Source: a virus (taxonomy: Duplodnaviria > Caudoviricetes). From it: DNA of 57,749 bases. The notes under the pieces are model-generated. The model was not told the origin of the DNA. It ran no database searches and was given only the letters and a program-made list of their open reading frames with translations. Below are positions 5,226 through 44,902 of this stretch, one piece after another (position 1 is the first letter of the stretch; each line of letters begins with the position of its first letter). Made by a program: the position numbers and the translations under genes. The DNA is taken from the IMG/VR virus record IMGVR_UViG_3300030037_000004, positions 1-57,749 of that record; one strand, 5' to 3'.

Positions 5226-5253
5226 GATGGTGGCCTCCTTAATTGGATCTTGT

Positions 5254-22154: not shown

Positions 22155-23051
22155 TTAAGAAGGTACGCTTGTAGGGTTACCAAGGTTACCAGAGTGTACG
22201 TGACCATCTAGTGTTTGAGTTGCACTAGCTACGGTTGTGGCAGTCAATGCGCCGGTAATAGCTGTGATGCCTGTAATTGTAACAGGCCCAACTATAGCCG
22301 CACCAGTAGCACCAGCAGGAGCACCACCAGCACCAATACCTTTAGCAACCAACAACGTCTCTGTGATAGACATAGCACCAGTCAGTGTAAAGAGAGGTGT
22401 TGTCATGTTCACAGCAGTGGCGGCTATGATGGCTAGGGTTGGTGTAGTTACTGTGGCGGATGTTGTTGCATCAACTGTCAGTGTCACACAGTCTGCATCT
22501 ATGCTATTGGTAGCGTTAACTACTGCATCATCGCACTGGACATCTACTAGCGGTGCCGTTATGAGTACCTTAGTAGTTGTCTCTATCTCGATGTCCTGGT
22601 CATCCTTAAGCCTAATGATTTGGTCGGCAGCAGCGTTCCTCCACTCTGAGTGAGTATCTGAATAGCTAGTGATAGCCAATGGCTCGGTATGGTAACCAAC
22701 AAGGCAGAAGCCGTCATTACGATTGAACTTACGTCTCAACCATGGCTTGGGTATCTCATCCAGCGTACCAGCACTTACCTTGTTCTCATACAACCAATGG
22801 TCATAGCCAACCTGACTAAAGCTAACCTGGCATGTATCTCCTACTGCAATAGGGTGAGTCTGAGCCCAGCCACCTCCAGAGTTGATATGCACAGGTATGC
22901 CTTTGATCGGCTTTGTTACCAGCATCTTGGCAGTTTCGCCTGAGTCGCTGTAAACTAGCTCGACACAAACTTGTACCGTAGCTTGCTGCTTGGCTGCATC
23001 GAATGTAACTATCTTGCCTGGTACGTTATAGAGTAGTTGGTTATTAAGCAT
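22155..23051 (-). CDS. Baseplate central spike (Gp138/gpV-like)
   Basis: PGKIVTFDA, P..GD.C...F, beta-helix-like T/A/V repeats, terminal HxH; start set at MLNNQ. Confidence 0.85.
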   Translation of the reverse strand: MLNNQLLYNVPGKIVTFDAAKQQATVQVCVELVYSDSGETAKMLVTKPIKGIPVHINSGGGWAQTHPIAVGDTCQVSFSQVGYDHWLYENKVSAGTLDEIPKPWLRRKFNRNDGFCLVGYHTEPLAITSYSDTHSEWRNAAADQIIRLKDDQDIEIETTTKVLITAPLVDVQCDDAVVNATNSIDADCVTLTVDATTSATVTTPTLAIIAATAVNMTTPLFTLTGAMSITETLLVAKGIGAGGAPAGATGAAIVGPVTITGITAITGALTATTVASATQTLDGHVHSGNLGNPTSVPS

Positions 23052-24228
23052 TCTTATCACCGAAGAAGGTTCTCGTATCCTCACTGGCTGATACTTTAAT
23101 GAGCTGGACAGGAGCAAGCTGGGGTGTGCCAGTTGCAGCCGCACCAACAGATCGTGCAGCCGTCAGAGCCTCTAGTGGCCCCAGGACAGTACCCACAACA
23201 GCCGATGCCGCTGACCTTGCCGTTCCTATTGATCCCGCGATAAAGTCGTCTACACCCAAAGCAGCGACGATCTGACCGAGGTGTGCATTAGAATTCAATT
23301 TAGTCAGGCCATATTTGCCACCGTAAATCGACTCCTCCAAATCACCTAAGGCCGTGTTGATGTAGCCCTTGGCAGCTCTGTCTATTACCCCCACGGAACC
23401 GGCCAGTAGTTCTTGCCCTAGAGTGGCAGCACCCTTGGGGTTACCTATTAAGGGGATCTCACTAGCTATGATGTCCGAGATAGAGTCAACTGTGGTTCGC
23501 CAGTCAAAGGTATCAATGATGGGAGCCACGGCCATTACTATGTCACTCGTGTGCATGTTAAAGCTATGGTCACCTGTAGCAGGATCGAAGCCTAAGTGCT
23601 CATACACAGTGGTCATGATAGTACCGGCAGGGTTCGCAGTCTGTAAAGAGAACGATCCAGCAAAGTCGGTAAGGCCAGTTTGTATCACAGCAGAGCCAGG
23701 AACGTTAATGCCAACACCAGCCAGTTCGGCTACCTTGGTTTCTCGCTCAGCTCCAGAGATACTATTGAAGACTACCAAGCTAGGTGTCTTGTTCGAGATA
23801 GTACTACCTATTTGGACTTGCTCACCCCGTAACTCAAACTTGGCGCTATCCATCATACCTGCACCTTGCTTTGTCTTTAGCTTGGTGAATATGACAGGAT
23901 CGTACGTACCAAGGTTGGTTTGTACTATACAGGGTACAGCCCGCTTGATTAGATCTCGCAATGAAGCAAAGACTATCTTGGAGTTGTTCACGCCGTACTG
24001 GTGGAATGTGTCTGTCCCGACCAGGGGAGTGTTGGATATAAGGCCAGTTAATGATATGACCTGGTTAGTAATGATAGCGTGCTTGCTTATCGTGAAGCCT
24101 TCCTGTGTAGGATACTTCGTTATAACACTACCTACCTCGTGCTCCTCAGCCTCAACAGAGTGAAAGCGAATCACTGAGTCTTGCCCGTTTACGGTGTGGG
24201 TAATCTGCGCCTTTGTAGGCTTAGGCAT
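23044..24228 (-). CDS. Baseplate/tail tube initiator (Dit-like) protein
   Basis: EEHE...ITKYP.Q.G..IS.H N-terminal pattern; synteny. Confidence 0.7.
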   Translation of the reverse strand: MPKPTKAQITHTVNGQDSVIRFHSVEAEEHEVGSVITKYPTQEGFTISKHAIITNQVISLTGLISNTPLVGTDTFHQYGVNNSKIVFASLRDLIKRAVPCIVQTNLGTYDPVIFTKLKTKQGAGMMDSAKFELRGEQVQIGSTISNKTPSLVVFNSISGAERETKVAELAGVGINVPGSAVIQTGLTDFAGSFSLQTANPAGTIMTTVYEHLGFDPATGDHSFNMHTSDIVMAVAPIIDTFDWRTTVDSISDIIASEIPLIGNPKGAATLGQELLAGSVGVIDRAAKGYINTALGDLEESIYGGKYGLTKLNSNAHLGQIVAALGVDDFIAGSIGTARSAASAVVGTVLGPLEALTAARSVGAAATGTPQLAPVQLIKVSASEDTRTFFGDKNA

Positions 24229-24236
24229 GATAGCTC

Positions 24237-25202
24237 CTATTTAAACCAAGCAGAGTCAGATGTTGGCATCGACAGTCCTGGCTGTGGTGAGGTTGCATTT
24301 GCTTTAGTTTGCCATAGCTTTGTCCAGTTTGATCCACGATGCTGTACACCGAGAGTCTGGTACTTGGCTGACCCTGCCACCTTTGAGGTAAGAAAGTCTT
24401 GGCTTAATTGTAGTATCTCGTCACCCTGTGCTGTATCAGCAAACAGTATGTTGGAGATGTCCAAGATAGAAGCAGGCTGTATATCACCGTTGAGTAGTGC
24501 CTCAATGGAGAGTGTGGCAGGCCCGATCTTGGGGTTGTTCAGCATCTGGGTAGTGGTAAGTTGTATCTGGCCAGGGGAGCTAAACAGGTTTGTGGAAGCT
24601 ACGTTCTTGGCGTTGGGGATACACATTAGATCCAGGTCATCACCCTTCGTGTAAATTTTGTAGCCATAGGCAGTACCTAGCGATTCCATGATGTCAAGGA
24701 ACGTACCTTGATAGTGCATCTGAGGGGTGGGTGGTATGTGGTCTACAGTATCAGCAGGGAAGTGGACGTAATTGACTTCACCATCGAAGCCTATCTCGTC
24801 TGTCATTTGCTGGACTGATCTACGTAGGGATGGCCTTAACACCTCAGTGTCGATAACCTTCTCTAGGAACTTCTTACGCATACCAGGAAAGCAGAACAGG
24901 GTTGTTACACTCTCAGGCAGGTCAGGCACTTCCAGCGCATTACTGACAAACATGTGGTTAGCTAGAACCTGTTCAGGCCCACCATGCATTGATACAGTGA
25001 GTGTCACGTAGTTCTCGCCATGGGTCAGCGACCTGACAGTCTCAGGGTTTAGGTTGTACAGGTCAAACTTGGCCCGACTGAAGCCAGGTATGTTACGTAT
25101 GTCAAAGTCGACGCGGAGGTTATCTGTTTCAAAGACAACTCCCCCGCTACCGTTCTGAACCTTGATACGCACGTATTGACCAAACGTATCTATCTTGGCC
25201 AT
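24237..25202 (-). CDS. Baseplate hub protein
   Basis: LRVDFDI...A..DLYNLN.ET, ALLN..I.P, H.G..W...W.T; follows the tape measure locus. Confidence 0.7.
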   Translation of the reverse strand: MAKIDTFGQYVRIKVQNGSGGVVFETDNLRVDFDIRNIPGFSRAKFDLYNLNPETVRSLTHGENYVTLTVSMHGGPEQVLANHMFVSNALEVPDLPESVTTLFCFPGMRKKFLEKVIDTEVLRPSLRRSVQQMTDEIGFDGEVNYVHFPADTVDHIPPTPQMHYQGTFLDIMESLGTAYGYKIYTKGDDLDLMCIPNAKNVASTNLFSSPGQIQLTTTQMLNNPKIGPATLSIEALLNGDIQPASILDISNILFADTAQGDEILQLSQDFLTSKVAGSAKYQTLGVQHRGSNWTKLWQTKANATSPQPGLSMPTSDSAWFK

Positions 25203-28200
25203 TTAGCCTCCAGTGTTTAGAGTATCAACTGACTCTTCAAAGTCACCATTGTTATCAACCGAAGTAGTCACCATATCTTCAGCCACGTTCACGTCTACAT
25301 TAATGTTATTGTCTACCTTCACGTTTGCCTTAGCTATGTTATCCATAACTGGAGTGACATCGGGAGATGGGTTAATGCGATTACTAAAGAACTCGTGCGT
25401 CTCATTAGCAACACCAGCACCTAGACCTAGCATGGCACCGGTAGCTATACCACGAGCACCACCAGGGATACCAGAGGCAGCACCAAGCCCAGTGAACTCA
25501 GCAACATCAAGAATGCTATCAGCCCATCCACCGTCGTCCTCTACACCTATCAATCCACGTAAAGCAGTAGGCATAGCAGCAATAGCCAGTGGCCCAGCCT
25601 TAGGGAACTTAGACATGGTACTAGAAGCAGCCCTGCCTATCGCAGCTCGACCCTTGGCAGTAGCCATAGAAGCTCCACCACCTATACCGAACCCAGCCAG
25701 AACCTTGGCAGCGGTTGACATAGTAGTGGCACCTTCAGCAGCGATACCAGCCTCATACCCAACAGTACCAGGAATCTCTAGTGCGTCTCGTGCTTCTTGT
25801 CTTACATCAGTAACACCTTCGTATTGAGAGCGAGCGCCTGAGGCATCTATGTCTCTATCGAAAGCTTCCCCGATTGCAGTAGAGCTTGCAGAGGTTACGG
25901 CCAGTTCAGGCATTCCCCACATCTTAGCAATGTAGGAACGCTCTTCCCTTGTCTTGCCATCCATCTGAGCCAAAGCTGTTGACATGAGAGCCTGAGCATC
26001 TTGGCCCTGCATGGAGGCGTAACCAGGCATTTGTAATGAACGAACACCAGGAAGGTTACTAGCACCTTGCATCCCAAGCATGTCAGTGTATCGACCAGGA
26101 GCTGTCAGTTCATTGTTCATAGTATTCTGGAGTTGGCCAGCCGCACCCATTACTGATGTAGCTCCACCTTCTGTCATACCACCATTTACAAGTATGTCAC
26201 GCATACCACGGATAGCTCCAGCTTCCAAGCCAGTGTTAGCGCCTAAGCGCTCATCAGCCATAGCCGTATCTGTACCACTCGTGGCAAGACTTCCCAGTGT
26301 ACCTAGGTTCTTGATAGCCTTAGCTAGGCCATTGCCAAACTCTCGGATCTTACCAGCAGACTCGTCCAGCGCATTGTTGAACTCATCAGGATCAACTGCA
26401 ACTTCTGTAGTGGTCGGAGGAGGAGTACCGCCTGATCCTTCGCCTGCACTTCCGCTTGCAACTGGTGAGCGCAAGACAGTACCGGCACCAACAGCACGAG
26501 GGCGGTAGGGTTCGGCAGCAGCAACAGGCTGGTTAGTCATAGTTTGGTACATTACTTCTTGACCAGCCAGGGTTGACTCAGCCTGAGAGGTTACTTTCTT
26601 TGGTCGCATACTGTGAGCCATAGCTTCGGCCTCCTCAGGTGTCATGTTGTTAGCGCGTAGTTGAGTTTCGATGATGTTAGCACGTAGCTGTTCCTGCATA
26701 TGAGGGTCGGCTTGTACTAGGTCGTACCTTGCTTTGATACCAGTGTCACTAGATCGTACAAAGTAGTGTGTCTGTGTCTCGCCTGTAATAAGCATCTGCA
26801 TTTGCATCTGTTTATTGTGCTTGGCGAAACTGGTCTTTGCACTCTTGTCTGTTAAGTACTTGAGTTCTAGTAGACCGGCTGAACTGCCATCTGGGTTATA
26901 AAGCCTGCCATCAGGAGAAACACCAGCCAGACCGGCCAGTTCTCCCTTACCTTCTTCAAAGTAAGCTTCTTCATATGATAATCCTTTTCCATCTGACCCC
27001 AAGAAGGAGGCAAGTGTTTCCCCTTCCGAGTCAGTACCATCCTTAGAGTACGAGTTACCTTTGAAGCTGGAACCATGTAGGACTGTGTTGACAGCCTTGT
27101 CTAGTGACTTCCGTAGTAACTCTTCAGCTACCGAGGCCGTTACCTTACCCTTGCGTTGGGCGTGCCACTCTGGACTACCCTGCTTATGGTTAGTACGCAT
27201 ACGAGTTTCGTACTGGTACCGTTGTTGGTCTGTCCTGTTACCAGCCATGATGGCTTGACTGCTACCACCTAGTCTAACTAGTGCAGGGTTGTACAGTTCC
27301 TCATCAGGGTCACTAGGGTCAAGCAACTCACGTACAAAATCTTCACGTTCTGAGGATTCCTTCTCACCGTAGATACCACCAGATTTCGTATCCAGCATTA
27401 CATTGGGGCCAAAGGACACTTCACTACCCTGCTCAAACAAGCCCTGGTATGTGTCCTTGTCTAGGATCGCACCTTCGTTTCTGGCATCCTGTGCCTCGGT
27501 CTGTTCACCATAGGGAGTGTCAAAGGCAGCGTGCCTGATCTGTCTTGCACTGTCATCCCTGTTAGTAGGGAACTGCTTTCTGAACACTGCGCTGGCAAAC
27601 TCTGCCTTCTCGTAGGCATCGGCAAGCAAGTTATAACTATCAGTCTTAGGCACATCGCCAAACAAAGACTTGCGCAAATTAGGAATATCTTTACCTGTGA
27701 CACCTTCATCATCCCGTATCATTGTGTAGTCACGATAGGTGAGGTCAGTACTCATGCCACCGTTGTTCATAGTAGGAACTAGGCCAGTGATTCTGCGCGT
27801 CCCCATAGAGACATCATTAGGCAGAGGAAGTAAAGCGCGGTCAGGCCCACGATCGTCAGGTCTTCGGAAGTGGCCTTGCATGAGTCTTTCTGTAAGGGCT
27901 TCGTTAACATCATAAAATCGTTGTTCATATGCTTGCGTATTATCCTTCGTAGCTTGACGGATGTATAGATCAGTAAGCTCTGCAACATTGTCAAAGGCTT
28001 GCTCAAGATCGTTCTCCTCTTTACGTCGGCGTTCCTCATTACCTACGTGGATACCTTGGAGTTTAGTTCCAGGCCCTTCAGCAAGATAGGAGCCAGAGGT
28101 GTTGCCCAGCATACTCAAGGCCATACTCATATCAGACTTAGATACGGTAGGCTGTATTGTTCTTGGTACTTTCAAGTCTCTACCCATAGCACGCAAGTGT

Positions 28201-28616
28201 GTTACAGGTGTTGCCTCGACAGCATGTATTTCATTATAGTAGTCAGCAGCAGGCAGGCCAGTTACAGAGTTGAACTCTACCGCAGCTTTAGCGAACGTAT
28301 CCTCAGCAAGCCCGTACTTAGTAGGGTCAAGCGAGCCGTCCAGTATCTTTCTGTGAGCAACCTTTTGTGAGTCGCCCATTCCTTCTAAGCGCCCTAGCAG
28401 CATGGTCTTAGTTGTTGCCATACCCTCGCCAGGGTTCTTGCTTAAAGGATCTTCCTTAGTAAAGCCAGCGAAGAAAGCATCAGCAGCCTCATCACCATCT
28501 TCAGAAAGGGAGCTAGCATCCTCTACAGAGAAGCCAGCCTTGTCCCAATCCTCACCGCTATAATCCGCGCTACCAGATGTATAGCTGTTGTAATCATCTT
28601 GATCATCGTAATCCAT
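25203..28616 (-). CDS. Tape measure-position protein with embedded YqaJ/lambda exonuclease domain (1137 aa)
   Basis: Lies between tail chaperones and baseplate; A/G-rich C-terminal third; internal QGSPEWHAQRKGKVTAS, SPDG, LELK, QMQMQM motifs. Confidence 0.8.
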   Translation of the reverse strand: MDYDDQDDYNSYTSGSADYSGEDWDKAGFSVEDASSLSEDGDEAADAFFAGFTKEDPLSKNPGEGMATTKTMLLGRLEGMGDSQKVAHRKILDGSLDPTKYGLAEDTFAKAAVEFNSVTGLPAADYYNEIHAVEATPVTHLRAMGRDLKVPRTIQPTVSKSDMSMALSMLGNTSGSYLAEGPGTKLQGIHVGNEERRRKEENDLEQAFDNVAELTDLYIRQATKDNTQAYEQRFYDVNEALTERLMQGHFRRPDDRGPDRALLPLPNDVSMGTRRITGLVPTMNNGGMSTDLTYRDYTMIRDDEGVTGKDIPNLRKSLFGDVPKTDSYNLLADAYEKAEFASAVFRKQFPTNRDDSARQIRHAAFDTPYGEQTEAQDARNEGAILDKDTYQGLFEQGSEVSFGPNVMLDTKSGGIYGEKESSEREDFVRELLDPSDPDEELYNPALVRLGGSSQAIMAGNRTDQQRYQYETRMRTNHKQGSPEWHAQRKGKVTASVAEELLRKSLDKAVNTVLHGSSFKGNSYSKDGTDSEGETLASFLGSDGKGLSYEEAYFEEGKGELAGLAGVSPDGRLYNPDGSSAGLLELKYLTDKSAKTSFAKHNKQMQMQMLITGETQTHYFVRSSDTGIKARYDLVQADPHMQEQLRANIIETQLRANNMTPEEAEAMAHSMRPKKVTSQAESTLAGQEVMYQTMTNQPVAAAEPYRPRAVGAGTVLRSPVASGSAGEGSGGTPPPTTTEVAVDPDEFNNALDESAGKIREFGNGLAKAIKNLGTLGSLATSGTDTAMADERLGANTGLEAGAIRGMRDILVNGGMTEGGATSVMGAAGQLQNTMNNELTAPGRYTDMLGMQGASNLPGVRSLQMPGYASMQGQDAQALMSTALAQMDGKTREERSYIAKMWGMPELAVTSASSTAIGEAFDRDIDASGARSQYEGVTDVRQEARDALEIPGTVGYEAGIAAEGATTMSTAAKVLAGFGIGGGASMATAKGRAAIGRAASSTMSKFPKAGPLAIAAMPTALRGLIGVEDDGGWADSILDVAEFTGLGAASGIPGGARGIATGAMLGLGAGVANETHEFFSNRINPSPDVTPVMDNIAKANVKVDNNINVDVNVAEDMVTTSVDNNGDFEESVDTLNTGG

Positions 28617-28623
28617 AACTTCC

Positions 28624-28911
28624 TCAGCCTTGTATGCCTCCGATTCCGGCCAGCGGAGGAGGTGGTTCTATGGTAGTACTGTGTTGCTTAATGTCTAATA
28701 TTTGGTGCATCATCTCTAATTGGTAGAGAGTATACGTACCATCCATCAGGTGCCTAAGCTCGCACATTGGAGGACTCACTAGCAGTGGCCTAACCATGTA
28801 GCCGTTCAGTTCAGGGAATACCTTATCATACTCGACAGGTACTATGGCTTGCTCGGCGGATTGGTTGAGGCTTGTGGGTAGAGATCCCCTGCTAAGCCTG
28901 ATGCGAAAAAA
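28624..28911 (-). CDS. Tail assembly chaperone frameshift extension (-1 frame from T TTT TTC)
   Basis: -1 frame open about 95 codons, reading RPLLVSPPMCELRHLMDGTYTLYQLEMMHQILDI, and ending just before the tape measure RBS. Confidence 0.8.
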   Translation of the reverse strand, partial: FFRIRLSRGSLPTSLNQSAEQAIVPVEYDKVFPELNGYMVRPLLVSPPMCELRHLMDGTYTLYQLEMMHQILDIKQHSTTIEPPPPLAGIGGIQG

Positions 28912-29279
28912 TCATCGTACTGGCTATGTATAACATGCATGAAGATTTCAATAGCTGTAATGGGTCTAGCTTCGAACAGGTGATTAAGGTCAGCTACATC
29001 CAAGGACTTGCCATCCAAGGTTACAGACTTAATCATGTGGAGGATAAGGTCAGCCCCTTCCTCACCAGCACCAGACTTTGTTGCACAGCGCATTGCTGCC
29101 TGCAAGTCTAGCTTGGCTACTGCTACTAACTCATCAGCTCCCCACAGTCGGGTTGCGTGACTAATGTTAGTCAGTAATGTATTGATAGGCCAGTTCTTAA
29201 TATAGATGGGCTTGCCTACAAACCCTTTAGTCTGAAGCTTGGCACGATAGCCTTCTACTCCAAAATCAAAATCACTCAT
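28842..29279 (-). CDS. Tail assembly chaperone
   Basis: Between tube and tape measure; AGGAG RBS at MSDFDF; DDFF slippery site. Confidence 0.8.
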   Translation of the reverse strand: MSDFDFGVEGYRAKLQTKGFVGKPIYIKNWPINTLLTNISHATRLWGADELVAVAKLDLQAAMRCATKSGAGEEGADLILHMIKSVTLDGKSLDVADLNHLFEARPITAIEIFMHVIHSQYDDFFASGLAGDLYPQASTNPPSKP

Positions 29280-29296
29280 TGTGTTTCTCCTAAGTT

Positions 29297-29318
29297 GGGG
29301 CCAGCACATGCCAGCCCC
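29297..29318 (-). promoter_or_regulatory. Hairpin after the tail tube gene
   Basis: GGGGCUGGC-AUGU-GCUGGCCCC. Confidence 0.55.
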
Positions 29319-29325
29319 TATTTAC

Positions 29326-29820
29326 TTACTGCCCGATACTATCGCCATCAACACCTTCACCACGACGGAATAATCCACGCTCGAAGGTTAGTACCCAAGG
29401 AACCGTACTCATGGTTTGACCACGAGACATCCCAGGAATAGCTAGGGTAATGCCGTTAACTAGAGTAACACTATCGTTACCCATGTTATCAGTGAGCTTC
29501 GCCTGAATAGGATAGATAGCTGCACCATCTGCATCAGCCTGAGCCTGCACATAGTTTACATAATCCTGAAGCAAGACGTTCTCAGGTGCGTTCATTAGTA
29601 ATGGGAATACTAAGTCAGTACCTTTAATGCGCTGAAGGTTAACAATCATGTCACCATAAGCTCCCCACTGCACATTGGCAATAGGTGCTCGACGCGTAAC
29701 GTTGATAAGGTTTTCCCCAGTAGGATAGCCTTCGACTTTGATTCGGCGGTAGTTACCAACTGAATCGGGGATAGCCAACACTAGGTCAGTGTTAGCAAAG
29801 CTGTATTGATACATAGCCAT
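29326..29820 (-). CDS. Tail tube protein
   Basis: Follows sheath; YSF start, GA.GD motif, P...RG....W. Confidence 0.8.
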   Translation of the reverse strand: MAMYQYSFANTDLVLAIPDSVGNYRRIKVEGYPTGENLINVTRRAPIANVQWGAYGDMIVNLQRIKGTDLVFPLLMNAPENVLLQDYVNYVQAQADADGAAIYPIQAKLTDNMGNDSVTLVNGITLAIPGMSRGQTMSTVPWVLTFERGLFRRGEGVDGDSIGQ

Positions 29821-29828
29821 GGTTCAAT

Positions 29829-31286
29829 TTACTCCGCGAATGTGCCAGAAACTTCAACCTGATGTAACGCGCCAGCGCCAACCATGTCAAATGAAAGACC
29901 CTTGTAGATACGTCCAGACTTATCAGCAGACGCTACGTCACCCAATAGTACAGCCTTGATACGGTATCCTTCAGGAAGGTAAGTTCCATCAGCAAGATAG
30001 CCAGGAGCAGACAAGCCATTACGGACAGCCGCTTGCAAGGAACGCTCTAACACTTCTTCAGTCATGTTAAGACCGGTCTGTGTATAAGGAACCTTGTCAG
30101 GATCTTGATAGATGAAGTTGAACATATCCACTTCGATACGGTTCTCTAACCACAATAGTCCGTGGGTAGTATCTAGCCAGGAGCCAGAAGCCATACGAGA
30201 GTTTACATAGGCGTTAACCTCAGAACCAATTTTCACAACCGCTGATCCGTACTTACCAGTTAAGGCAGCGTACTCAGCAGGGTTCAAGTCTTCAGCAGTG
30301 ATGCCAGGAAGTTGCTTGAGGTTCATGGTCATGGTCGTGCCAATACCAGAGAAGTTCACGCTAGCTACTCGACCGAACACGCCAGAACCAGGATAGAGTT
30401 CAGTGTTCTTACTAAAGCTAGATAGAGTGTGTCGCAGGGTAGCGGCTTTCATCTGGCTGATAGTGTCGGTAGTGATAAGGCTAGTCAATGATACCAATGA
30501 GTTAGAGGTATGCATGTGGATCTTCTTAGCAGCCTCACACCAGTTAGCTATATCAATAGTATCTTCGTTATCAGCATTACCAGTTTGGTCGCGCCAATCT
30601 TTATGATAGTCCAATCCAACGAACTTGATGCCCTGTGTAAGGGTTGCAGCAAGGGAGTCAATGGGAGTTTCAACAGCAACACCTTGGCTGATCTTACCTT
30701 GATGCTGGGCAAAGCCTAACAAGGAAGCAAGAGTTCCAGTACAGAAGGTAGTGTTACCAGTTCCACCAGTGTTGTTACCGCGAAGGATAAAGCCATAGGC
30801 CCCATACTCACAAGTAGCACCGCCAACAACAGCATCTACAGCCGCCTGGATAATAACAGCAACAGCCGCGAAATCAGCCGCGCCAGATAGATCTTGGTTA
30901 GTCAAGCTTACAGCAACGTTATCAACAGTTAAGGTAAGAGTACCAGTTGTGATAGCTTGAAGCTGTGCAATGGTTCCATGAGATCCACCAACAAGGGCAG
31001 CACTCTGGGCAACATCGTAGTTCATTAGAACAGTAAAGTCAGTTGGAGTAGGTGTCTGTGCATAGAAAGCTGTAGCAGCCTTGTATACTTCAGAGGCAGT
31101 ATTCCAATCAATACCTACAAAGGATAAACCTTTGTAAGCTCGCCCACGTTCAGCAGGCAGGATAGACGTGATAGAGTCGTCTGAGACTTTGGTTAGAAAG
31201 CCTAAGATACCGAAGTTCCCGCTAGACACACCAGTAGGTGATACCGCTATAGAAACATTCGCAAACTCGGTTGTTTCGATTGTCAT
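29829..31286 (-). CDS. Tail sheath protein (DUF3383-like)
   Basis: YKAATAFYAQTPTP, LKQLPGITA, G.WLD..G..WL, KVPYT..G, AGALH.V. Confidence 0.92.
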   Translation of the reverse strand: MTIETTEFANVSIAVSPTGVSSGNFGILGFLTKVSDDSITSILPAERGRAYKGLSFVGIDWNTASEVYKAATAFYAQTPTPTDFTVLMNYDVAQSAALVGGSHGTIAQLQAITTGTLTLTVDNVAVSLTNQDLSGAADFAAVAVIIQAAVDAVVGGATCEYGAYGFILRGNNTGGTGNTTFCTGTLASLLGFAQHQGKISQGVAVETPIDSLAATLTQGIKFVGLDYHKDWRDQTGNADNEDTIDIANWCEAAKKIHMHTSNSLVSLTSLITTDTISQMKAATLRHTLSSFSKNTELYPGSGVFGRVASVNFSGIGTTMTMNLKQLPGITAEDLNPAEYAALTGKYGSAVVKIGSEVNAYVNSRMASGSWLDTTHGLLWLENRIEVDMFNFIYQDPDKVPYTQTGLNMTEEVLERSLQAAVRNGLSAPGYLADGTYLPEGYRIKAVLLGDVASADKSGRIYKGLSFDMVGAGALHQVEVSGTFAE

Positions 31287-31298
31287 AGTGATTCCCTG

Positions 31299-31823
31299 TT
31301 AAGGATTTATATTTAGTTGTAAGGCTATCTTGTTACCATCAGGTTCATGGAAGTTCCCGTTGATTACCATGCCAGTAATGTTATTAACTACCTCACTATC
31401 CTTACGGACGGTGTACATATCAATAGACACACCTTGCCTTGCTTCCCAGAACTCTTCTAGTTTAGCATCCTCAAGAGCAATAGGATGGATAGATACAAAG
31501 CCGAAGCCTGTTTCCATCATGAGCTGTTTAACGCTTTCTCTATGCCAACCGCCTAGTATCTGAGTAGAAGCTATCCCATCAGTTTCAACAATGCCCACCC
31601 TAAACCGAAGTACGGTAGGTGTCACTGTTGTGTAGGTAGTCTCGTCAGTAGTCTGTTTAGTAATAACCTTGTTAGGCATACCAACAGGCTTCTCAGTAAG
31701 TAGGGAAATACTACAGAACTCACCCTCAGGTCTATCACCACCCGTCCTGGCTGGATGAGAGAACAAGGGAGTGCCGGTCAGCAGATCCATAAAGCGCTGC
31801 ATAGTTTGTATGTCACTTCGCAT
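31299..31823 (-). CDS. Neck / tail terminator protein
   Basis: Immediately before the sheath; typical size. Confidence 0.65.
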   Translation of the reverse strand: MRSDIQTMQRFMDLLTGTPLFSHPARTGGDRPEGEFCSISLLTEKPVGMPNKVITKQTTDETTYTTVTPTVLRFRVGIVETDGIASTQILGGWHRESVKQLMMETGFGFVSIHPIALEDAKLEEFWEARQGVSIDMYTVRKDSEVVNNITGMVINGNFHEPDGNKIALQLNINP

Positions 31824-32196
31824 TAGGCACCCATCCTTTAGCCTTCTCAATCATGAACCCGTCAAAGCCAAAGACTTCTTCATCCGAGTTCTGGAGTATG
31901 TGGTAGTACTCACCTTTGTGACCAAACTTGTCACCGATCTTAACCCCGTAGTGTGCCTTCACATATATCTGTCTATAGTCAGAGGTACGGATACCACCTT
32001 CCATGTTCTTGATAGATACACCTTCGTCAAACTGCGAGAACTTGTTACCACTGGACAGCACAACACGCACGTACTTGGAAGTGGTTCTACCCTCTATCCA
32101 GTCGTTAACTTCGTTGCGCCTTCCTTGGGCAATCGAGTACAAGGTAATACGTGTCATGAACTTGGCGTTAAAAGCCCGTCCCATATTCATCGCCAT
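31813..32196 (-). CDS. Head-tail joining / closure protein
   Basis: Synteny; EGG.R...YR.IY, GD.F...GE.Y.I. Confidence 0.65.
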   Translation of the reverse strand: MAMNMGRAFNAKFMTRITLYSIAQGRRNEVNDWIEGRTTSKYVRVVLSSGNKFSQFDEGVSIKNMEGGIRTSDYRQIYVKAHYGVKIGDKFGHKGEYYHILQNSDEEVFGFDGFMIEKAKGWVPNAK

Positions 32197-33096: not shown

Positions 33097-34173
33097 TTAG
33101 ATACCGTAGAAGTGCTGGAATGCGGCTGGGCGGATACACTCTAGAGAAGCGAATCGACCGTAGCAGTTGGTTACAAACTCTAATCCCTCGTACTGGATAG
33201 GTAAGTGAACCATAGGGTAGGTTTCACGTACACGTGCATTATCCGCACCAGAGCAGATAGTTGTGAAGCCATTGCCAGCAGTACCAGCTTCAACGAATAC
33301 GCCACCGTCAGTCGCATAGATGCCATCTACTTCGTTAACGTCAATGAAGTCGTCAGCAGATTTGATGAACTGGTTGTTGGCTAAGAACCAAGACATAATG
33401 CTCATGTCTGACTGATCAGAACGAGGAGTGTTCATCAAATACAACTTCTTCTCAACAGAGATAAGGATCTTGTCAGGACGGAAGATCTTCAATGTCTGAG
33501 TGTAGTGCTGTGAGCAAGCGCCAGTTAGATCAGCGATTACTTCTGTAGGAGTCTTGTCAACACCCCAGACACGTGAGTTACCACCACCAGCAGCAGCAGC
33601 CGCTTGAGTCTTAGTGATAGTCAAAGCAGGTGCTCCAACTGGGCCAGAGAAGAAACCGTGTAGTGCATTTGGAATATCGCCAAACCAGATCAAGGCGTTA
33701 ACCTTCTCTTCGTATGACTTAGCAGCAGCGGCAGCTTTCTGTGCATCAAGAGGCATACCTACTAACTTAGCAGCAGCGATCTCCTGACGTGAGTAGCCGT
33801 AGCTAGTTCCAAGAGTCTTAACACCGATAGAGTATTCTCGACCAGAGATGTCAGCACGAGGTAAATCAGTTGCCTTACCAGCGATAACAGAAGTTTCGCC
33901 ACGCTTATCATAGCTACGGTAAGTCAGCGAGTTAACACCTTCTCCGCCTTCAGTGTTAGTAGTAAACACTTTACGAGCCATAAGCTCAGGGTACAATACA
34001 TCATAAGACTTAGCTTGGATGTGTTCTAACTGACGCTGGAAGAAGATACCTTCGTCATCGTTCATGAGGTGGCCAGCATCGACCAAGAAACACATGTTGT
34101 CATTCAATGTGAAATCACCGACTTCTGTATCGTTACCGGCTTCGTCATGTAGCATTGTTTGGATAATACGCAT
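33097..34173 (-). CDS. Major capsid protein (DUF2184-like, HK97 fold)
   Basis: FFQRQLEHI, YPEL.AR, DLPRADI, Y.YS.QEI.AA; start set at MRIIQ after AAGGA. Confidence 0.92.
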   Translation of the reverse strand: MRIIQTMLHDEAGNDTEVGDFTLNDNMCFLVDAGHLMNDDEGIFFQRQLEHIQAKSYDVLYPELMARKVFTTNTEGGEGVNSLTYRSYDKRGETSVIAGKATDLPRADISGREYSIGVKTLGTSYGYSRQEIAAAKLVGMPLDAQKAAAAAKSYEEKVNALIWFGDIPNALHGFFSGPVGAPALTITKTQAAAAAGGGNSRVWGVDKTPTEVIADLTGACSQHYTQTLKIFRPDKILISVEKKLYLMNTPRSDQSDMSIMSWFLANNQFIKSADDFIDVNEVDGIYATDGGVFVEAGTAGNGFTTICSGADNARVRETYPMVHLPIQYEGLEFVTNCYGRFASLECIRPAAFQHFYGI

Positions 34174-34200
34174 TCTAATATTTCCTTTAAGGGTTTTGTT

Positions 34201-34219
34201 AGCCCACCCTAGGCAGGCC
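34201..34219 (-). promoter_or_regulatory. Hairpin upstream of the capsid RBS
   Basis: GGCCUGCC-UAG-GGUGGGCU; arms shared with 9618-9638. Confidence 0.55.
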
Positions 34220-34238
34220 ATGTACTAGTTAACTACTA

Positions 34239-34766: not shown

Positions 34767-35876
34767 TTACGCGTTACGCGCTATTGCTTTCTGACGGGCT
34801 TCGTCAACTTTGCTGATTACAGGCTTTGCATCTTCAACAGTTGTCTTTAAGTGCTTCTTAAGCTCTCGACCCATCGGGGTATCCTTATCCGCATCTTCAA
34901 CACAGATCTTGTAACGCATACCAACATACGCTTCATCTTCTGCATCAAACTTTAGATCAGGCATTAGTTCGCTGATAACCTCAGCCTTGATAGCTGTAAG
35001 GCTCTTGTCTTCAAAGCCAGTCAAACCAACAAGGAAGCGTGCTTCATCAAGTACTTGACAGCGCTCGACAACACTTTCCTTACTAGCTGCAACTGCCTTG
35101 GCAACTTCAGCGTCTTTGGCATCAACAATAGCCTGGTGCTCAGATACAGCAGTGTTTAACTTCTCTACCTCAACTAAGGACTTATCGTGTACTGCCTTGA
35201 ATGTAACCAGCTCTTCGCGTGCATCTGACATGTGTTTAGCCATGACTAGAACCGCGTCCAACTCTTTATCTTCAACAGCAACATGTTTGGCTTTATCTTC
35301 GTCACCCATCTCATCAATAACAATTAATGCTTCATCAGAGATACGGCAGCTTGATCCAGCTCGGCCATGCTTAACAATTGCGATGTGGTTAGCTCGAATG
35401 TTTACTTGCTCGAACCGTCCATCTTCGACTTTAATGTCACAGGTGTATCCCGCAGACAATTCAACAACGCCTTCTTCTACTTCATCAAGCGCTTTCTGGT
35501 TAGACAATACCAAGACACCAGATAGAGTATCTTCTACACGGTGAGGTCGTCCTTCCAACATACCTACTTGTAACGCACCAGCATTGTCTACTGTGACAGC
35601 CATAGGCTTGCCTTCAGCAGTCTTAGGGTGTCCAATAGTTACAGGTACAGAGCGGAAACTATCCATAGATGCATCATCAAACACTTGGCTTTCGCTGCGG
35701 TGTACTGTAATGATCTTGGTAGGTTCTTCATCAACAAGGCCAAGCTGGGCAGCGGTGTACATCTGCTCGCCAGTTCTTGCAAAGGCACAAGGTACAATCA
35801 TCTGACCATTGTCAGTTACTATGCGCTTAGTCGGGACTGAGATTCTGTCCTCGAAATGAATGTTACTTAGGAGCAT
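34767..35876 (-). CDS. Prohead protease/scaffold (DUF2213-like)
   Basis: ARTG.Q.Y, PVTIGHP, ELSAGY, NHIAIV..GRAG; coiled-coil C-terminus. Confidence 0.9.
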   Translation of the reverse strand: MLLSNIHFEDRISVPTKRIVTDNGQMIVPCAFARTGEQMYTAAQLGLVDEEPTKIITVHRSESQVFDDASMDSFRSVPVTIGHPKTAEGKPMAVTVDNAGALQVGMLEGRPHRVEDTLSGVLVLSNQKALDEVEEGVVELSAGYTCDIKVEDGRFEQVNIRANHIAIVKHGRAGSSCRISDEALIVIDEMGDEDKAKHVAVEDKELDAVLVMAKHMSDAREELVTFKAVHDKSLVEVEKLNTAVSEHQAIVDAKDAEVAKAVAASKESVVERCQVLDEARFLVGLTGFEDKSLTAIKAEVISELMPDLKFDAEDEAYVGMRYKICVEDADKDTPMGRELKKHLKTTVEDAKPVISKVDEARQKAIARNA

Positions 35877-37179
35877 TGCTGCCTCCGATTGGTTTAGGTG
35901 GGTTAGGGTTGTCGCCTACCTTGGCTGTATCCTTAAAGATGTTAGCATCCTTTAGTTCTTCCAAGATAGATTCACGAGAGACTATGCCACTGTCTGCCCA
36001 GTTCTTGTGTGCCTCTGAAAGGTTTACAAGACGCTCGGCTTTCTGTGCGGCTGACTCAGGGAATATACAACTCCACTTATATTTGAACTCGTCTTCTCCG
36101 ATACCGAAGTGTGCAGCCATAAGCTGGTCAACAATGTCAACACGAGGATTGTATATACTCTTCTGAAGACCTACTAGCATCTCAATATAGTTAACTAGGT
36201 CAGACTCGCCCGTTGCATTCATGCCGTCAGGAGAAGCTGATAAGAATCTAGTAGCAGGTATCCCTACACTGGCTGCAACTATCTTGAGGTATTCCCAGAT
36301 TAAGTCCTTGACTCCTGAAAGCTGGACTGTCTTCTTTTCATAGATCTCATTCTGATCCAGTATACTCACGCCGAAGGTTGACTTGATGCTATTCCACTCT
36401 AAGAAGCGGTTAAGCATTGCAGACGTACCCTCTTGATCGGTTAGTATGTTCTGGAGTCCTTTGATACTTATGACATCAACGTTAGCTTCTTGCACCATTT
36501 GAGCGGCAGCATGAGAGGCTGTATGGAAGTTGTCAATCTGTTGGGTCAAAGGAATGAGTACAGAGTCAGAGTACCAGAGGTTTCTTTGCCGTTCATAGAT
36601 AGGAAGCTCTGTACCTTCGAAGCGGATCAACCGACTCTTATGTACTGGGCTGTTCGTATTTACAAACTGGTAAAGGTCTGGCATTCCAAAGGTAGGGGAC
36701 ATAGGTGTTTGATCTATGTCTCCTGTGGCAACTATACGAGTTCTATCTACCACTGTCATGGATCTAAGGCAACCAGGCTTGAGACGTTTCCAGTTAATTG
36801 GTTTGTCTAAAGCTCGCCCATCAGCGACATCTAGTACGATGAAGCTAGTCCCATACAGCCTTGCCCACTTGTAAGCCTCCCTGAAAAGGTTAGCAACATT
36901 GAAGTGCACGTCAGCCTCAGTGGCTAATGGTGAATCAAACTCGCGCCACTCTCTTGTCATGTCTTGAGGCACGATAGTACAGATCTTCTGGCTCAACCAA
37001 TCTTCACGGAAGCGAGCTGATAGAGTAGGGTGATCTGCATTACGGCCTGAGTGTGACCAGACATTATGAGAGGACTTATCCTTAGCACCACCAAGACCTG
37101 TTGCCAGGTTAGACAGCCCATCGAACAAGGATGCAGTTTTCACTTCTCCCCTTATGACTGTTTCTGTTTCTGAGGGCAT
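35863..37179 (-). CDS. Portal protein (DUF1073-like)
   Basis: DGL.N..TGLG, PQDMTREW, WARLYG, VH.SRLIRF.G, IPATR....P.GMNATGESD. Confidence 0.92.
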   Translation of the reverse strand: MPSETETVIRGEVKTASLFDGLSNLATGLGGAKDKSSHNVWSHSGRNADHPTLSARFREDWLSQKICTIVPQDMTREWREFDSPLATEADVHFNVANLFREAYKWARLYGTSFIVLDVADGRALDKPINWKRLKPGCLRSMTVVDRTRIVATGDIDQTPMSPTFGMPDLYQFVNTNSPVHKSRLIRFEGTELPIYERQRNLWYSDSVLIPLTQQIDNFHTASHAAAQMVQEANVDVISIKGLQNILTDQEGTSAMLNRFLEWNSIKSTFGVSILDQNEIYEKKTVQLSGVKDLIWEYLKIVAASVGIPATRFLSASPDGMNATGESDLVNYIEMLVGLQKSIYNPRVDIVDQLMAAHFGIGEDEFKYKWSCIFPESAAQKAERLVNLSEAHKNWADSGIVSRESILEELKDANIFKDTAKVGDNPNPPKPIGGSNAPK

Positions 37180-44715: not shown

Positions 44716-44716
44716 G

Positions 44717-44902
44717 TTATCCCTTGAGCGAGTTCCAGCCCGAAGGCTTTTCAATGTACAGGCCAGAGGCAGTATCAACATCTAATGTTACAGACGAACC
44801 GCTGACCAAAGTTATAGTAGCCAGGATACCACCTGACTCATCCTTAATATCGAATGACTTGTTCTTATCGGATCTTCCATCCAATCTAGTCTTGAGACTC
44901 AT
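44717..44902 (-). CDS. Hypothetical protein (61 aa)
   Basis: AGGAG RBS; fits exactly between neighbours. Confidence 0.7.
   Translation of the reverse strand: MSLKTRLDGRSDKNKSFDIKDESGGILATITLVSGSSVTLDVDTASGLYIEKPSGWNSLKG

Follow-up and report, generated by a model that had tools for sequence, protein, structure and literature searches.

A lambda-exonuclease-type nuclease domain within the tape-measure-slot protein of a marine Chaseviridae-like phage

The tail module and its long gene

The window analysed here, a 57,749-nucleotide stretch that makes up the whole of IMG/VR record IMGVR_UViG_3300030037_000004, is the complete genome of a marine, uncultured, Chaseviridae-like myophage. In a PHROG search of the window the tail genes run in the order sheath, tube, chaperone, P0001 and hub, as follows.

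29829-31286, minus strand: tail sheath (phrog_205, E 9.1e-87)
29326-29820, minus strand: tail tube (phrog_280, E 2.9e-17)
28842-29309, minus strand: tail assembly chaperone-like ORF (G-like), from the ORF and its sequence and a same-size ORF at the same place in related loci
28624-28911, minus strand: -1 frame extension (GT-like), the frame being open from stop to stop
25203-28616, minus strand: P0001, the tape-measure-slot gene, 1137 aa, from the ORF and its translation, a homologue alignment and AlphaFold domain parsing
24237-25202, minus strand: baseplate hub homologue, directly abutting P0001 downstream (phrog_196 'baseplate hub', E 1.9e-19)

The sheath shares 35-39% identity with Chaseviridae sheaths. 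The chaperone-like ORF gave no match in the PHROG search; it probably starts at an ATG at 29279, preceded by AGGAG, and in phage ZPAH14 the ORF at this position bears the annotation 'tail assembly chaperone'. A slippery heptamer, T_TTT_TTC, lies in the zero-frame register at 28905-28911 and opens the -1 extension. When the window is taken together with 14 other loci, a -1 ORF of 79-115 codons fills the gap before the long gene in all 15, and TTTTTTC is in register in 14 of them. An ORF of about 320 aa follows the long gene in related loci, and the tail gene order is kept in 18 of 18 related IMG/VR loci, to the extent of each contig. Neither the ORF list nor the PHROG search offers an alternative tape measure candidate among the tail module ORFs besides P0001.

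P0001 reads without interruption from an ATG start through 1137 codons, and aligns end to end with 28 homologues of 1048-1469 aa. A preliminary description of this DNA had correctly placed a gene of 1137 aa between the frameshifted chaperone and the baseplate hub, while omitting that it lies on the minus strand. No missed stop is indicated: positions 25100-28900 are identical (0 differences, 0 gaps) in a second assembly, a Logan contig of run X1, which is not independent because X1 is probably the source sample, and three further marine runs contain short contigs that agree exactly with parts of the gene, among them 26747-27254 in the nuclease domain.

Domains of the slot protein and its relatives

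An AlphaFold model divides P0001 into an acidic tail, an N-domain, the nuclease, a Pro/Thr/Gly linker, a helical C-terminal region and C-terminal beta strands, in that order; these parts and the nuclease motifs are located as follows.

28491-28616, minus strand: acidic disordered N-terminal tail, residues 1-42, MDYDDQDDY... (pLDDT under 50)
27567-28439, minus strand: N-terminal helical domain or domains, residues ~60-350 (pLDDT 70-95 over 65-130 and 160-350; family-conserved)
26607-27239, minus strand: lambda-exonuclease/YqaJ-type PD-(D/E)XK nuclease domain, residues ~460-670 (profile, Foldseek and structure alignment)
27153-27167, minus strand: W484...R488 of the N-terminal Q-x4-W-x3-R-x-G-x2-T-A-S motif (family-invariant)
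26859-26912, minus strand: catalytic core D569 ... E584-x-K586, DGRLYNPDGSSAGLLELK (translation and family alignment)
26382-26600, minus strand: low-complexity Pro/Thr/Gly/Ala-rich linker, residues 673-745 (pLDDT under 50, without secondary structure)
25377-26381, minus strand: tape-measure-like alpha-helical region, residues 746-1080 (AlphaFold helices and hydropathy)
25206-25304, minus strand: C-terminal beta strands and ...TGG end, residues 1105-1137 (strands E1105-1131, low model confidence)

As a single sequence P0001 misses the curated cut-offs of Pfam and NCBIfam, scoring 14.6 bits against Pfam YqaJ (E 0.04; cut-off 22) and 19.1 bits against TIGR03033 (cut-off 68), and this counts against the reading that we prefer below. 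It matches phrog_149 'exonuclease' with an E value of 5.5e-8, and a profile of the 28 homologues, searched against the PDB, matches the LHK-Exo exonuclease 3syy with an E value of 7.4e-22 and with the SPDG, E-x-K and QMQ motifs aligned. The model of the domain (pLDDT about 85-95) aligns with LHK-Exo (3syy_A) at Z 17.0 and an rmsd of 2.9 A over 175 residues, and with lambda exonuclease (3slp_A) at Z 16.4 (VIA-align), and each of the best ten Foldseek matches in the PDB is lambda Exo, LHK-Exo or a related phage exonuclease. The motifs from which the domain was originally recognised are all present in the translation, QGSPEWHAQRKGKVTAS at residues 479-495, GVSPDGRL at 565-572, LLELKY at 582-587 and QMQMQMLITG at 603-612; residues 475-655 correspond to nucleotides 26652-27194, in agreement with the ~26640-27200 first reported.

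In the family profile the D569...E584-x-K586 core aligns with SPDG...E-I-K of LHK-Exo, and the lambda exonuclease residues matched to W484 and R488 are W24 and R28, the latter of which we take to form the 5'-phosphate pocket. D569, E584 and K586 do not vary among the 28 aligned homologues, and together with E531 they are kept in all 108 relatives of at least 1000 aa. The nuclease domain surpasses the rest of the protein in conservation, with a top-residue frequency of 0.57-0.68 over residues 481-640 versus 0.25-0.56 elsewhere, and it is the one YqaJ-type domain of the complete genome; Pfam, PHROG and NCBIfam searches found no endonuclease domain in P0001. The proposal of a YqaJ/lambda exonuclease domain with an intact-looking active site is thus upheld by the family profile, by Foldseek, by the PD-(D/E)XK fold of the model and by the conserved residues, and judged from its sequence the enzyme is apparently a working one. 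That P0001 joins a nuclease of this type to the tape-measure slot is, we believe, very probable.

The remainder of the protein is less readily classified. The long acidic N-terminal region previously pointed out is present, with a net charge of -12 over residues 1-40 and a total of about -36 over 1-440 when summed in 40-residue blocks, and similarly acidic starts are found in most related loci. The N-terminal helical domain, folded alone, has no PDB match at Z of at least 5 (best Z 4.8) and no Pfam, PHROG or NCBIfam match; as modelled, the N-terminal ~450 residues match no known fold. The linker is the most gapped and least conserved of the C-terminal stretches. Beyond it, and as had been noted, only the C-terminal third (~35%) looks like a tape measure: the model has long helices between 743 and 1080 (H743-795 ... 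H1054-1077), hydropathy is positive over 961-1080 with 20-28% Gly/Ala, Gly/Ala-rich hydrophobic helices lie at ~1010-1080, and residues 1012-1081 bear a weak likeness to two-helix membrane hairpins (Z 5-6.6). One BFVD match to the helical region (E 3.9e-4) carries the name 'lambda GpH tail tape measure C-terminal', and the C-terminal consensus is kept across the family alignment. None of the 28 family members matches a tape-measure family of Pfam or PHROGs, and the assignment of P0001 as a tape measure therefore rests on its position, its shape and the annotation of its relatives.

Cultured Chaseviridae of both subfamilies have the same combination of tape-measure slot and nuclease. The slot proteins of Escherichia phage vB_EcoM_4HA13 ('tail tape measure protein', QEM43042.1, 1204 aa), Aeromonas phage ZPAH14 ('exonuclease', YP_010656754.1) and Vibrio phage VPs20 (UYD72124.1) are encoded, like P0001, after the tube, the chaperone and a gap of about 200 nt and before the hub; they are 1204-1276 aa long with YqaJ centrally placed, above the Pfam cut-off in 4HA13 and ZPAH14 and below it in VPs20. 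Sequence likeness between P0001 and these isolates is nearly lost (BLASTP against ZPAH14, E 0.19), and a tblastn search with P0001 among 50,697 phage records gave no match. In a library clustered at 50% identity, 119 representatives match at E of 1e-30 or below, and 80 phage records cover at least 80% of the 4HA13 homologue. The fusion, described at first as a singular find, is in fact shared throughout Chaseviridae and by environmental relatives that form about a hundred clusters at 50% identity, and while that part of the preliminary description falls, its nuclease type, tape-measure slot, C-terminal third and usual hydrolase cargo all stand. Peptidoglycan hydrolases are indeed the usual enzymatic cargo of tape measures, and the 4HA13 slot protein has an extra SLT lytic transglycosylase domain beside YqaJ, which is not detectable in P0001 (Pfam, NCBIfam). 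The present phage differs from the cultured isolates: it is a marine relative that is uncultured, its genome measures 57.6 kb, and it encodes two RNA polymerase homologues.

Delivery with the DNA and its alternatives

The explanation that we prefer overall, with a probability of roughly 0.55, is that P0001 is a tape measure, a protein of the tail lumen that is ejected, and that its nuclease is delivered with the DNA. The C-terminal ~390 residues would play the usual tape-measure part at the baseplate hub and, after contraction, probably insert into the membrane, with the flexible Pro/Thr/Gly linker connecting them to a predicted catalytically competent nuclease. Such a Mg-dependent PD-(D/E)XK enzyme should act on a double-stranded DNA end and degrade its 5'-phosphorylated strand 5'->3'. 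The tail lumen would take up the whole of P0001, which would exit the tail before the DNA, and the ready-made nuclease would encounter the first genome end to enter the cell. By resecting the 5' strands within the long direct terminal repeats that Chaseviridae typically have, the nuclease would allow the ends to anneal, and the genome to circularise or concatemerise and cease to be a free RecBCD substrate, before phage gene expression. Both delivery with the DNA and resection of terminally redundant ends are what we infer; presence of the nuclease part in the virion and its ejection seem somewhat probable, and processing of the phage's own ends is a tentative and rather doubtful suggestion.

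In Chaseviridae the genome is a linear, non-permuted molecule that carries terminal repeats of about 3 kb (ICTV profile, PMC12842549); the terminal overlap in the present record is a 127-nt assembly overlap only. Among ORFs of at least 100 aa the genome shows no single-strand annealing protein (PHROGs, E of 1e-5 or below). Apart from P0001 it encodes a 5'-3' exonuclease (phrog_107, 51522-52520) as well as an endonuclease VII, which serve replication and recombination, and this, like the missing annealing protein, counts against delivery for end processing.

As the one piece of experimental support for delivery, and an indirect one, the accessible part of a report on 4HA13 (PMC9699118) has the 1204-aa homologue, named tape measure, detected by LC-MS/MS of a phage preparation and second in the ion-chromatogram legend (Figure 7) of the top twelve proteins; the preparation contained non-structural proteins too, and 15 proteins had at least 50% coverage. 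The 1204-aa protein of 4HA13 is nevertheless accompanied by a tail of 116.5 nm, and the ST32 homologue of about 1237 aa by one of 132 nm. At the 0.15 nm per residue of the tape-measure rule, proteins of this length are expected to give about 180 nm. These slot proteins are thus too long for the measured tails, so a part of each measures no length and may be outside the tube altogether. The tail tube lumen is about 4 nm, and a folded nuclease domain of ~24 kDa, and certainly a toroidal trimer like that of lambda Exo, is too large for it, implying storage in a single or partly unfolded form.

The short tails suit the alternative that survives best, although we think it unlikely, in which the nuclease is made as part of a tape-measure precursor and is not delivered. 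Its N-terminal two thirds would be cleaved off during tail assembly, or never be in the tube, and would act late inside the producing cell, in tasks such as recombination-dependent replication, the processing of concatemers or the breakdown of host DNA, the fusion merely tying nuclease synthesis to late gene expression. Tape measures of other phages are proteolytically processed (lambda gpH, T5 pb2), and in the model of P0001 the N-terminal and nuclease domains are globular and confidently folded while the disordered linker of ~70 residues forms a natural cleavage site. The library matches also include N-terminal-only and C-terminal-only proteins that break near the linker, but 7 of the 10 short forms looked up sit on contigs of 1.8-4.2 kb and are therefore probably contig-edge fragments, and the gene is split in 0 of 18 related loci. 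Further against this alternative, a replication-type 5'-3' exonuclease is already present in the genome, the 4HA13 homologue ranks second among the twelve proteins of the LC-MS/MS legend, and coverage of at least 50%, if that homologue is one of the 15 proteins in the accessible part of the report, is beyond the reach of the C-terminal third.

The same evidence for delivery, together with the conserved active site, would serve a nuclease that is ejected but directed at something other than the phage genome, as an injected weapon or counter-defence that attacks host, plasmid or competing-phage DNA ends, or the nucleic acids of defence systems, at the onset of infection. Injected proteins that disarm host defences occur in other phages and provide a precedent. 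However, enzymes of the lambda Exo type require a double-stranded end, which an intact chromosome does not offer, and Pfam, PHROG and NCBIfam searches show no endonuclease domain in P0001; a few copies per virion would be a weak weapon against a whole chromosome, and at entry the nearest double-stranded end is the phage's own. We regard this alternative as distinctly improbable.

We give still less credence to a module that binds the DNA end with little or no digestion, holding or piloting the leading end in the tail or neck, or capping it against RecBCD. In the accessible part of a siphophage preprint (bioRxiv 10.1101/2024.12.10.627806), the tape measure and the DNA end reportedly interact in the neck, and the P0001 residues aligned with the 5'-phosphate pocket of lambda Exo are invariant, but retention of all metal-binding and catalytic residues in the 108 long relatives is unexpected for a binding-only role, and the nuclease domain lies in mid-protein rather than at the head-proximal N-terminus. 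That P0001 is no tape measure but another virion or non-virion protein in the slot (a tail fibre, an internal protein or a stand-alone exonuclease) would fit the lack of a tape-measure family match and the varied annotations of homologues (tail fiber, tail tube initiator, putative endonuclease, exonuclease, virion structural protein, hypothetical), but is scarcely credible given that no other tail-module ORF fits a tape measure, that a conserved G/GT-type -1 frameshift lies directly upstream, that the C-terminal region combines helices and a Gly/Ala-rich composition with a conserved end that adjoins the hub gene, and that the 4HA13, PYps23T and SSEM1 records carry tape measure annotations.

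Comparison with known nucleases and tape measures

The fold of the P0001 domain is common to lambda exonuclease (Red-alpha), LHK-Exo of Laribacter hongkongensis and YqaJ (Pfam PF09588, TIGR03033; PD-(D/E)XK superfamily), and the Q..W...R.G..TAS motif, the PD...E-x-K core and the QMQ motif are all shared with lambda exonuclease and LHK-Exo. Enzymes of this type are free-standing proteins of about 200-230 aa that form toroidal trimers and are encoded beside an annealing protein in recombination modules, whereas the P0001 domain is embedded at 40-60% of an 1137-aa tail protein, falls under the curated YqaJ family cut-offs, and is encoded in a genome in which no annealing protein was detected.

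Our literature search turned up no account of a tape measure that includes a nuclease domain, and an exonuclease within a tape measure is undiscussed in the searchable papers, as is a Chaseviridae-wide tape-measure-slot protein with a built-in enzyme of the lambda exonuclease type. The accessible part of a report on T4 gp29 (bioRxiv 10.64898/2026.03.06.709160) describes a helical part, then a proline-rich stretch, then a membrane-active part, and reports channel formation after contraction. T4 gp29 and P0001 both belong to contractile tails and, so far as that part of the report extends, have a similar order of parts, with the channel role reported for T4 and only presumed for P0001, and there is no detectable sequence relationship between the two. 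To our knowledge T4 gp29 has no enzymatic domain.

Tape measures with cargo provide a parallel in modular logic. Tape-measure-related Sle1-type effectors are described, in the accessible part of the source, for actinobacterial contractile injection systems (PMC13277306). These effectors and the tape measures that carry peptidoglycan hydrolases would have in common with P0001 a tail-lumen scaffold joined to a domain that leaves on firing, but they carry a wall hydrolase or an effector directed at the membrane or the ribosome, whereas P0001 carries a DNA exonuclease in mid-protein. If the preferred reading of a nuclease delivered with the DNA is true, the ends of this phage might be processed ahead of any phage gene expression, by an enzyme that arrives ready-made.

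Gene order and integrity around P0001

The gene for P0001 occupies 25203-28616 on the minus strand as a single ATG-started open frame of 1137 codons, and its neighbours, assigned by PHROG scans, form a standard contractile-tail module.

Genes around P0001, from PHROG scans
35863-37179 (-), portal
34767-35876 (-), protease
33097-34221 (-), major head protein
31299-31850 (-), tail completion
29829-31286 (-), sheath
29326-29820 (-), tube
28842-29309 (-), 155-aa ORF without PHROG assignment
25203-28616 (-), P0001 gene, 1137 aa
24237-25202 (-), baseplate hub (phrog_196)
downstream of the hub gene, further baseplate, wedge and fibre genes

The gap of 225 nt before the P0001 gene contains a -1 frame open from 28911 to 28624, and a T_TTT_TTC heptamer at 28905-28911 (-) marks the exact start of this frame and is in register with the upstream ORF. 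A -1 ORF of 79-115 codons fills the gap in all 15 genomes compared (the window and 14 related loci), with TTTTTTC in register in 14 of them. The -1 ORF and heptamer correspond to the G/GT chaperone arrangement that generally lies upstream of tape measure genes, so the preliminary description was correct in placing P0001 between frameshifted chaperones and the hub. The recurrence of T_TTT_TTC in 14 of 15 genomes is unusually uniform given the divergence of these phages; at one related locus (L014) the -1 ORF is present and an XXXYYYZ heptamer in register is absent.

A missed stop splitting the gene had been raised as a concern, and the gene appears intact. A 3.8-kb stretch is identical (0 differences, 0 gaps) in another assembly, made from the run that is probably the source, and short contigs from three other marine runs exactly match parts of the gene, the nuclease region included; neither these contigs nor the second assembly give any sign of a missed stop or chimeric gene. 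Short exact contigs of the gene are present in two marine runs labelled metatranscriptomic (X3 and X4), from which expression is not inferable because DNA can occur in such libraries. The record is complete and repeats 127 bases at both ends, giving a genome of 57,622 bp. This repeat is an assembly overlap, and the true termini and any terminal repeat of ~3 kb are therefore invisible in the record. The DNA polymerase gene (phrog_17; 3-1592 and 57220-57720, both minus strand) is interrupted by the record ends.

The genome also encodes a primase/helicase, ligase, ribonucleotide reductase, dUTPase and large terminase in addition to the DNA polymerase, together with a separate 5'-3' exonuclease (phrog_107), endonuclease VII and two single-subunit RNA polymerase homologues. 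The latter are T7-type and lie at 15620-17782 (-) and 47311-49170 (-) of the 57.6-kb genome; the 619-aa homologue matches phrog_414 at E 1.8e-76, and the 720-aa homologue, directly after the tail fibre genes, matches it only at E 9.7e-25. Four large ORFs have no PHROG family at E <= 1e-5, at 40887-43391 (-; 834 aa), 43396-44781 (-; 461 aa), 37254-39245 (-; 663 aa) and 8028-9605 (-; 525 aa), and the 663-aa ORF, lying between the terminase and portal genes, shows nothing beyond a weak match of 38 residues at its C-terminal end to a 'tail terminator' family. An endolysin-like ORF at 4749-5399 (-; phrog_7) overlaps an ORF at 5254-5646 (-) matching an HNH endonuclease (phrog_2081), possibly a homing endonuclease next to the gene for lysis. 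The spike/baseplate ORF at 22155-23147 (-), with a TTG start, overlaps the preceding 394-aa gene (23044-24228, -) by ~100 nt, and its true start is probably further downstream.

Chaseviridae are recognised by a myovirus tail module, a single-subunit RNA polymerase, a linear 52-56 kb genome and genes on one strand. The window has sheath, tube and baseplate genes and the two polymerase homologues, with all assigned genes on the minus strand, and its genome is slightly above the 52-56 kb of the family (PMC12842549). Chaseviridae are described with one large RNA polymerase, compared with the two homologues here. Judging from its sequence, the phage is a distant, uncultured, marine Chaseviridae-like myophage, because the sheaths of Aeromonas, Vibrio and Shewanella phages share 35-39% identity with its own, and both phages whose records were examined are Chaseviridae. 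The genomes of this family are linear and non-permuted with terminal repeats of ~3 kb, and uncontracted tails measure 116-166 nm (ICTV profile, PMC12842549).

The nuclease domain and the remainder of P0001

An AlphaFold model divides P0001 into a series of folded and disordered segments, with the nuclease near the middle of the chain.

Segments of P0001 in the AlphaFold model
residues 1-42, disordered acidic tail
residues ~60-350, N-terminal helical domain(s) reaching pLDDT 95
residues ~390-458, disordered stretch
residues 460-670, nuclease
residues 673-745, disordered Pro/Thr/Gly-rich linker
residues 743-1077, long helices; 780-935 form a confident helical block, and those near 1010-1080 are hydrophobic and Gly/Ala-rich
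residues 1105-1131, three short C-terminal strands

The motifs from which a lambda-exonuclease/YqaJ domain of the PD-(D/E)XK family had been proposed are found at residues 479-495 (QGSPEWHAQRKGKVTAS), 565-572 (GVSPDGRL), 582-587 (LLELKY) and 603-612 (QMQMQMLITG). Taken alone, P0001 falls below the curated Pfam and NCBIfam cut-offs, which are operational thresholds rather than biological features: Pfam YqaJ (PF09588) scores 14.6 bits where the cut-off is 22 (E 0.04, spanning profile positions 1-148 of 150) and 18.8 bits in a six-frame search, and TIGR03033 reaches 19.1 bits where 68.05 are required. The 'exonuclease' family phrog_149 matches at E 5.5e-8. A phmmer search of P0001 against PDB sequences returned 0 matches, and the family profile alone succeeded. 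The weak single-sequence scores are resolved by the homologues, since their profile and matches settle the identity. We found 28 further proteins of 810-1469 aa homologous to P0001, and in an alignment of P0001 with 27 homologues (A1) PF09588 is matched at E <= 0.01 by 27 of the 28 members (best 1.7e-15), P0001 being the sole exception. Compared with PDB sequences, the A1 profile finds the alkaline exonuclease LHK-Exo (3syy_A) with E 7.4e-22; the match covers profile positions 463-633 and brings the motifs SPDG, E-x-K and QMQ into register. W484 and R488, both invariant in A1, are aligned by this profile with W24 and R28 of lambda Exo (6m9k_A, 1avq_A), where R28 belongs to the 5'-phosphate pocket.

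The model agrees with this assignment, and the check for a PD-(D/E)XK fold recovers the lambda-Exo topology by both structural methods used. Residues 460-670 have a pLDDT of ~85-95, and VIA-align places LHK-Exo (3syy_A; Z 17.0, rmsd 2.9 A, 175 aa) and lambda Exo (3slp_A; Z 16.4, 3.3 A, 188 aa) well above the next families. The ten top-ranking PDB structures in Foldseek comprise only lambda Exo, LHK-Exo and a related phage exonuclease, with probability 1.00 and TM(target) 0.61-0.71 for those of lambda Exo and LHK-Exo. The active-site residues E531, D569, E584 and K586, along with Q603, Q605 and Q607, are invariant in all 28 sequences of A1. The domain is present in all 108 collected relatives of at least 1000 aa, each with the same E531, D569, E584 and K586 intact, and the D and an E-x-K, either EHK or EVK, can also be seen in the alignment of three cultured phages, where MAFFT misplaces them. 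This is the best conserved stretch of P0001 and the single copy of a YqaJ-type domain in the genome. The domain is thus a divergent member of the lambda exonuclease/YqaJ group, predicted from its alignment and model to be catalytically competent.

Outside the nuclease, an acidic N-terminus had been noted, and residues 1-40 carry a net charge of -12. Residues 1-460, folded alone (15 sequences, mean pLDDT 59.6) and compared with 48,161 PDB representatives, gave a best Z of 4.8, and whole-model Foldseek found only nuclease-type or chance matches, with nothing for the N-terminal region; such a null match does not demonstrate a new fold. The suggestion that only the C-terminal third resembles a tape measure fits the long helices of residues 743-1077 and their Gly/Ala-rich hydrophobic segments. 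Hydropathy is +0.3 and Gly/Ala content 20-28% over residues 961-1080, one family member matches a Pfam Gly-zipper, and the hydrophobic helices bear a weak likeness to two-helix membrane hairpins (Z 5-6.6). BFVD yields one weak structural match (E 3.9e-4), a protein that carries the name 'GpH tail tape measure C-terminal', after lambda GpH. The helical block at 780-935 (pLDDT 80-90) has only weak helical matches, all with Z < 6, and a degenerate lytic transglycosylase considered there found no support. No wall-hydrolase domain is detectable in P0001 with Pfam or NCBIfam.

Relatives of the slot protein

The preliminary description called for a survey of the fusion in relatives, and the same architecture recurs throughout. 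In each of 18 related IMG/VR loci the sheath gene is followed by tube, chaperone, gap, long protein and hub as far as the contig extends, the long protein having 1136-1723 aa where complete and the hub gene encoding ~320 aa. When 1.84 billion representatives were searched exhaustively with a profile, 119 proteins scored E <= 1e-30, mostly of 1100-1500 aa and matching end to end. Among cultured Chaseviridae, the 'tail tape measure protein' of Escherichia phage 4HA13 (Cleopatravirinae) is 1204 aa long and has YqaJ at 453-589, Aeromonas phage ZPAH14 has a 1205-aa 'exonuclease' in the same slot, and Vibrio phage VPs20 (Nefertitivirinae) has a hypothetical protein of 1276 aa whose YqaJ match lies below threshold. 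The 4HA13 protein also carries an SLT lytic transglycosylase at 1025-1117, whereas none is detectable in P0001. At least 80% of the 4HA13 protein is present in 80 phage records, under names including tape measure, tail fiber, tube initiator, putative endonuclease, virion structural and hypothetical protein.

P0001 has diverged from the proteins of these isolates beyond BLAST detection in either direction. Searches of 50,697 phage records with P0001 by tblastn and megablast found nothing, the relatives being reached via the sheath, and BLASTP against the ZPAH14 slot protein was not significant (E 0.19). The nuclease is the module surviving across the whole span of relatives, because it is kept in P0001 even though that protein is too diverged for BLAST and lacks a wall hydrolase.

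Shorter relatives were considered individually. The 810-aa P0020, a candidate nuclease-less or split relative, is actually a 5'-truncated copy beginning within the nuclease domain. Seven of ten short library matches examined come from contigs only 1.8-4.2 kb long and are therefore probable fragments. The other three, P0113 (596 aa), P0125 (623 aa) and P0107 (673 aa), on contigs of 12.1, 19.3 and 6.7 kb respectively, are C-terminal-only or N-terminal-only relatives broken near the linker, and may represent split or nuclease-less forms, or else fragments from contig edges. For P0125, neither tblastn against phage records nor a scan of viral contigs found anything.

Proposed delivery of the nuclease and its alternatives

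P0001 is a tape-measure-slot protein with a strongly conserved lambda-Exo-type active site, in an architecture that is family-wide. From this domain and slot, which are solid, we infer delivery and function. P0001 would be assembled within the lumen of the tail, its C-terminus lying at the hub, and contraction would expel it, the C-terminal hydrophobic helices engaging the membrane; C-terminal membrane engagement is reported for T4 gp29 (bioRxiv 10.64898/2026.03.06.709160). The linker would allow the nuclease to reach the incoming DNA end. Resection of the terminal repeats on their 5' strands would follow, and the resected ends could then anneal, or would no longer be free RecBCD substrates. 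We give roughly a one-in-four chance to a more far-reaching reading, namely a lineage-wide, tape-measure-delivered lambda-type exonuclease whose copies, held together by the tape measure oligomer, close outside the tail into a ring on the entering end, which leads, through 5' resection of ~3-kb repeats, to circularisation or concatemerisation and to RecBCD escape before gene expression.

The main rival is that the linker is cleaved and the nuclease has a late intracellular function, and two difficulties for delivery bear on it. Tape measure length is proportional to tail length at ~0.15 nm per residue, and by this rule of thumb full-length homologues over-predict their tails, at ~180 nm versus 116-132 nm measured. 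The lumen of a contractile tube is ~4 nm, and a folded nuclease domain or trimeric ring is too large for it, so the N-terminal two thirds would have to be stored unfolded or singly, located elsewhere, or removed. The tail is 116.5 nm in 4HA13 (PMC9699118), whose slot protein has 1204 aa, and 132 nm in ST32 (PMC6266442), whose homologue has ~1237 aa; tails of such lengths would fit if no more than some two thirds of the protein served as the ruler. The 4HA13 paper also describes LC-MS/MS detection of 15 proteins at >= 50% coverage, with the tape measure protein second in the ion-chromatogram legend for the top twelve, in a sample that also contained non-structural proteins (PMC9699118).

Three further explanations are less likely. 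One is that the nuclease is a weapon against foreign DNA, a reading that the conserved active site would also fit. Another is that the domain is a non-catalytic DNA-end binder, which the invariant W484 and R488 would suit and the equally invariant catalytic residues argue against. The third is that P0001 is not a tape measure; no tape-measure family matches P0001 in Pfam, PHROGs or NCBIfam, or any of the 28 aligned members in Pfam or PHROGs, which lowers the tape-measure claim and does not exclude it, because tape measure proteins are notoriously divergent in sequence.

Full-text searches, with the GJ1 and Y2 genome papers (PMC2223254, PMC3165370) and the 4HA13 Supplementary Table S2 outside their scope, found no paper discussing a tape measure protein with a nuclease domain. 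P0001 adds a highly divergent member to a protein family that Chaseviridae records already contain under inconsistent names; for annotation, this means that the same protein appears variously as tail fiber, endonuclease, exonuclease, tube initiator or hypothetical. The nuclease is kept from phages of E. coli, Erwinia, Aeromonas and Vibrio to a very distant marine relative, and its retention across hosts while no wall-cutting domain is detectable in P0001 argues that it is a core function of the lineage. The question can be tested directly in phages growing on E. coli K-12.

Recent T4 work describes a tape measure that forms a channel for DNA entry (bioRxiv 10.64898/2026.03.06.709160). An active exonuclease in the tape measure would, if true, add DNA-end processing to the functions that phages deliver as protein, at the time when the genome is most exposed to host nucleases. 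Ring closure and resection would amount to a protein-primed 'pre-expression' recombination step, which to our knowledge is known for no tailed phage. Tape measure proteins set tail length and carry wall-degrading domains, and a nuclease, a cargo of which we found no description, would extend the known set of cargo-carrying tape measures.
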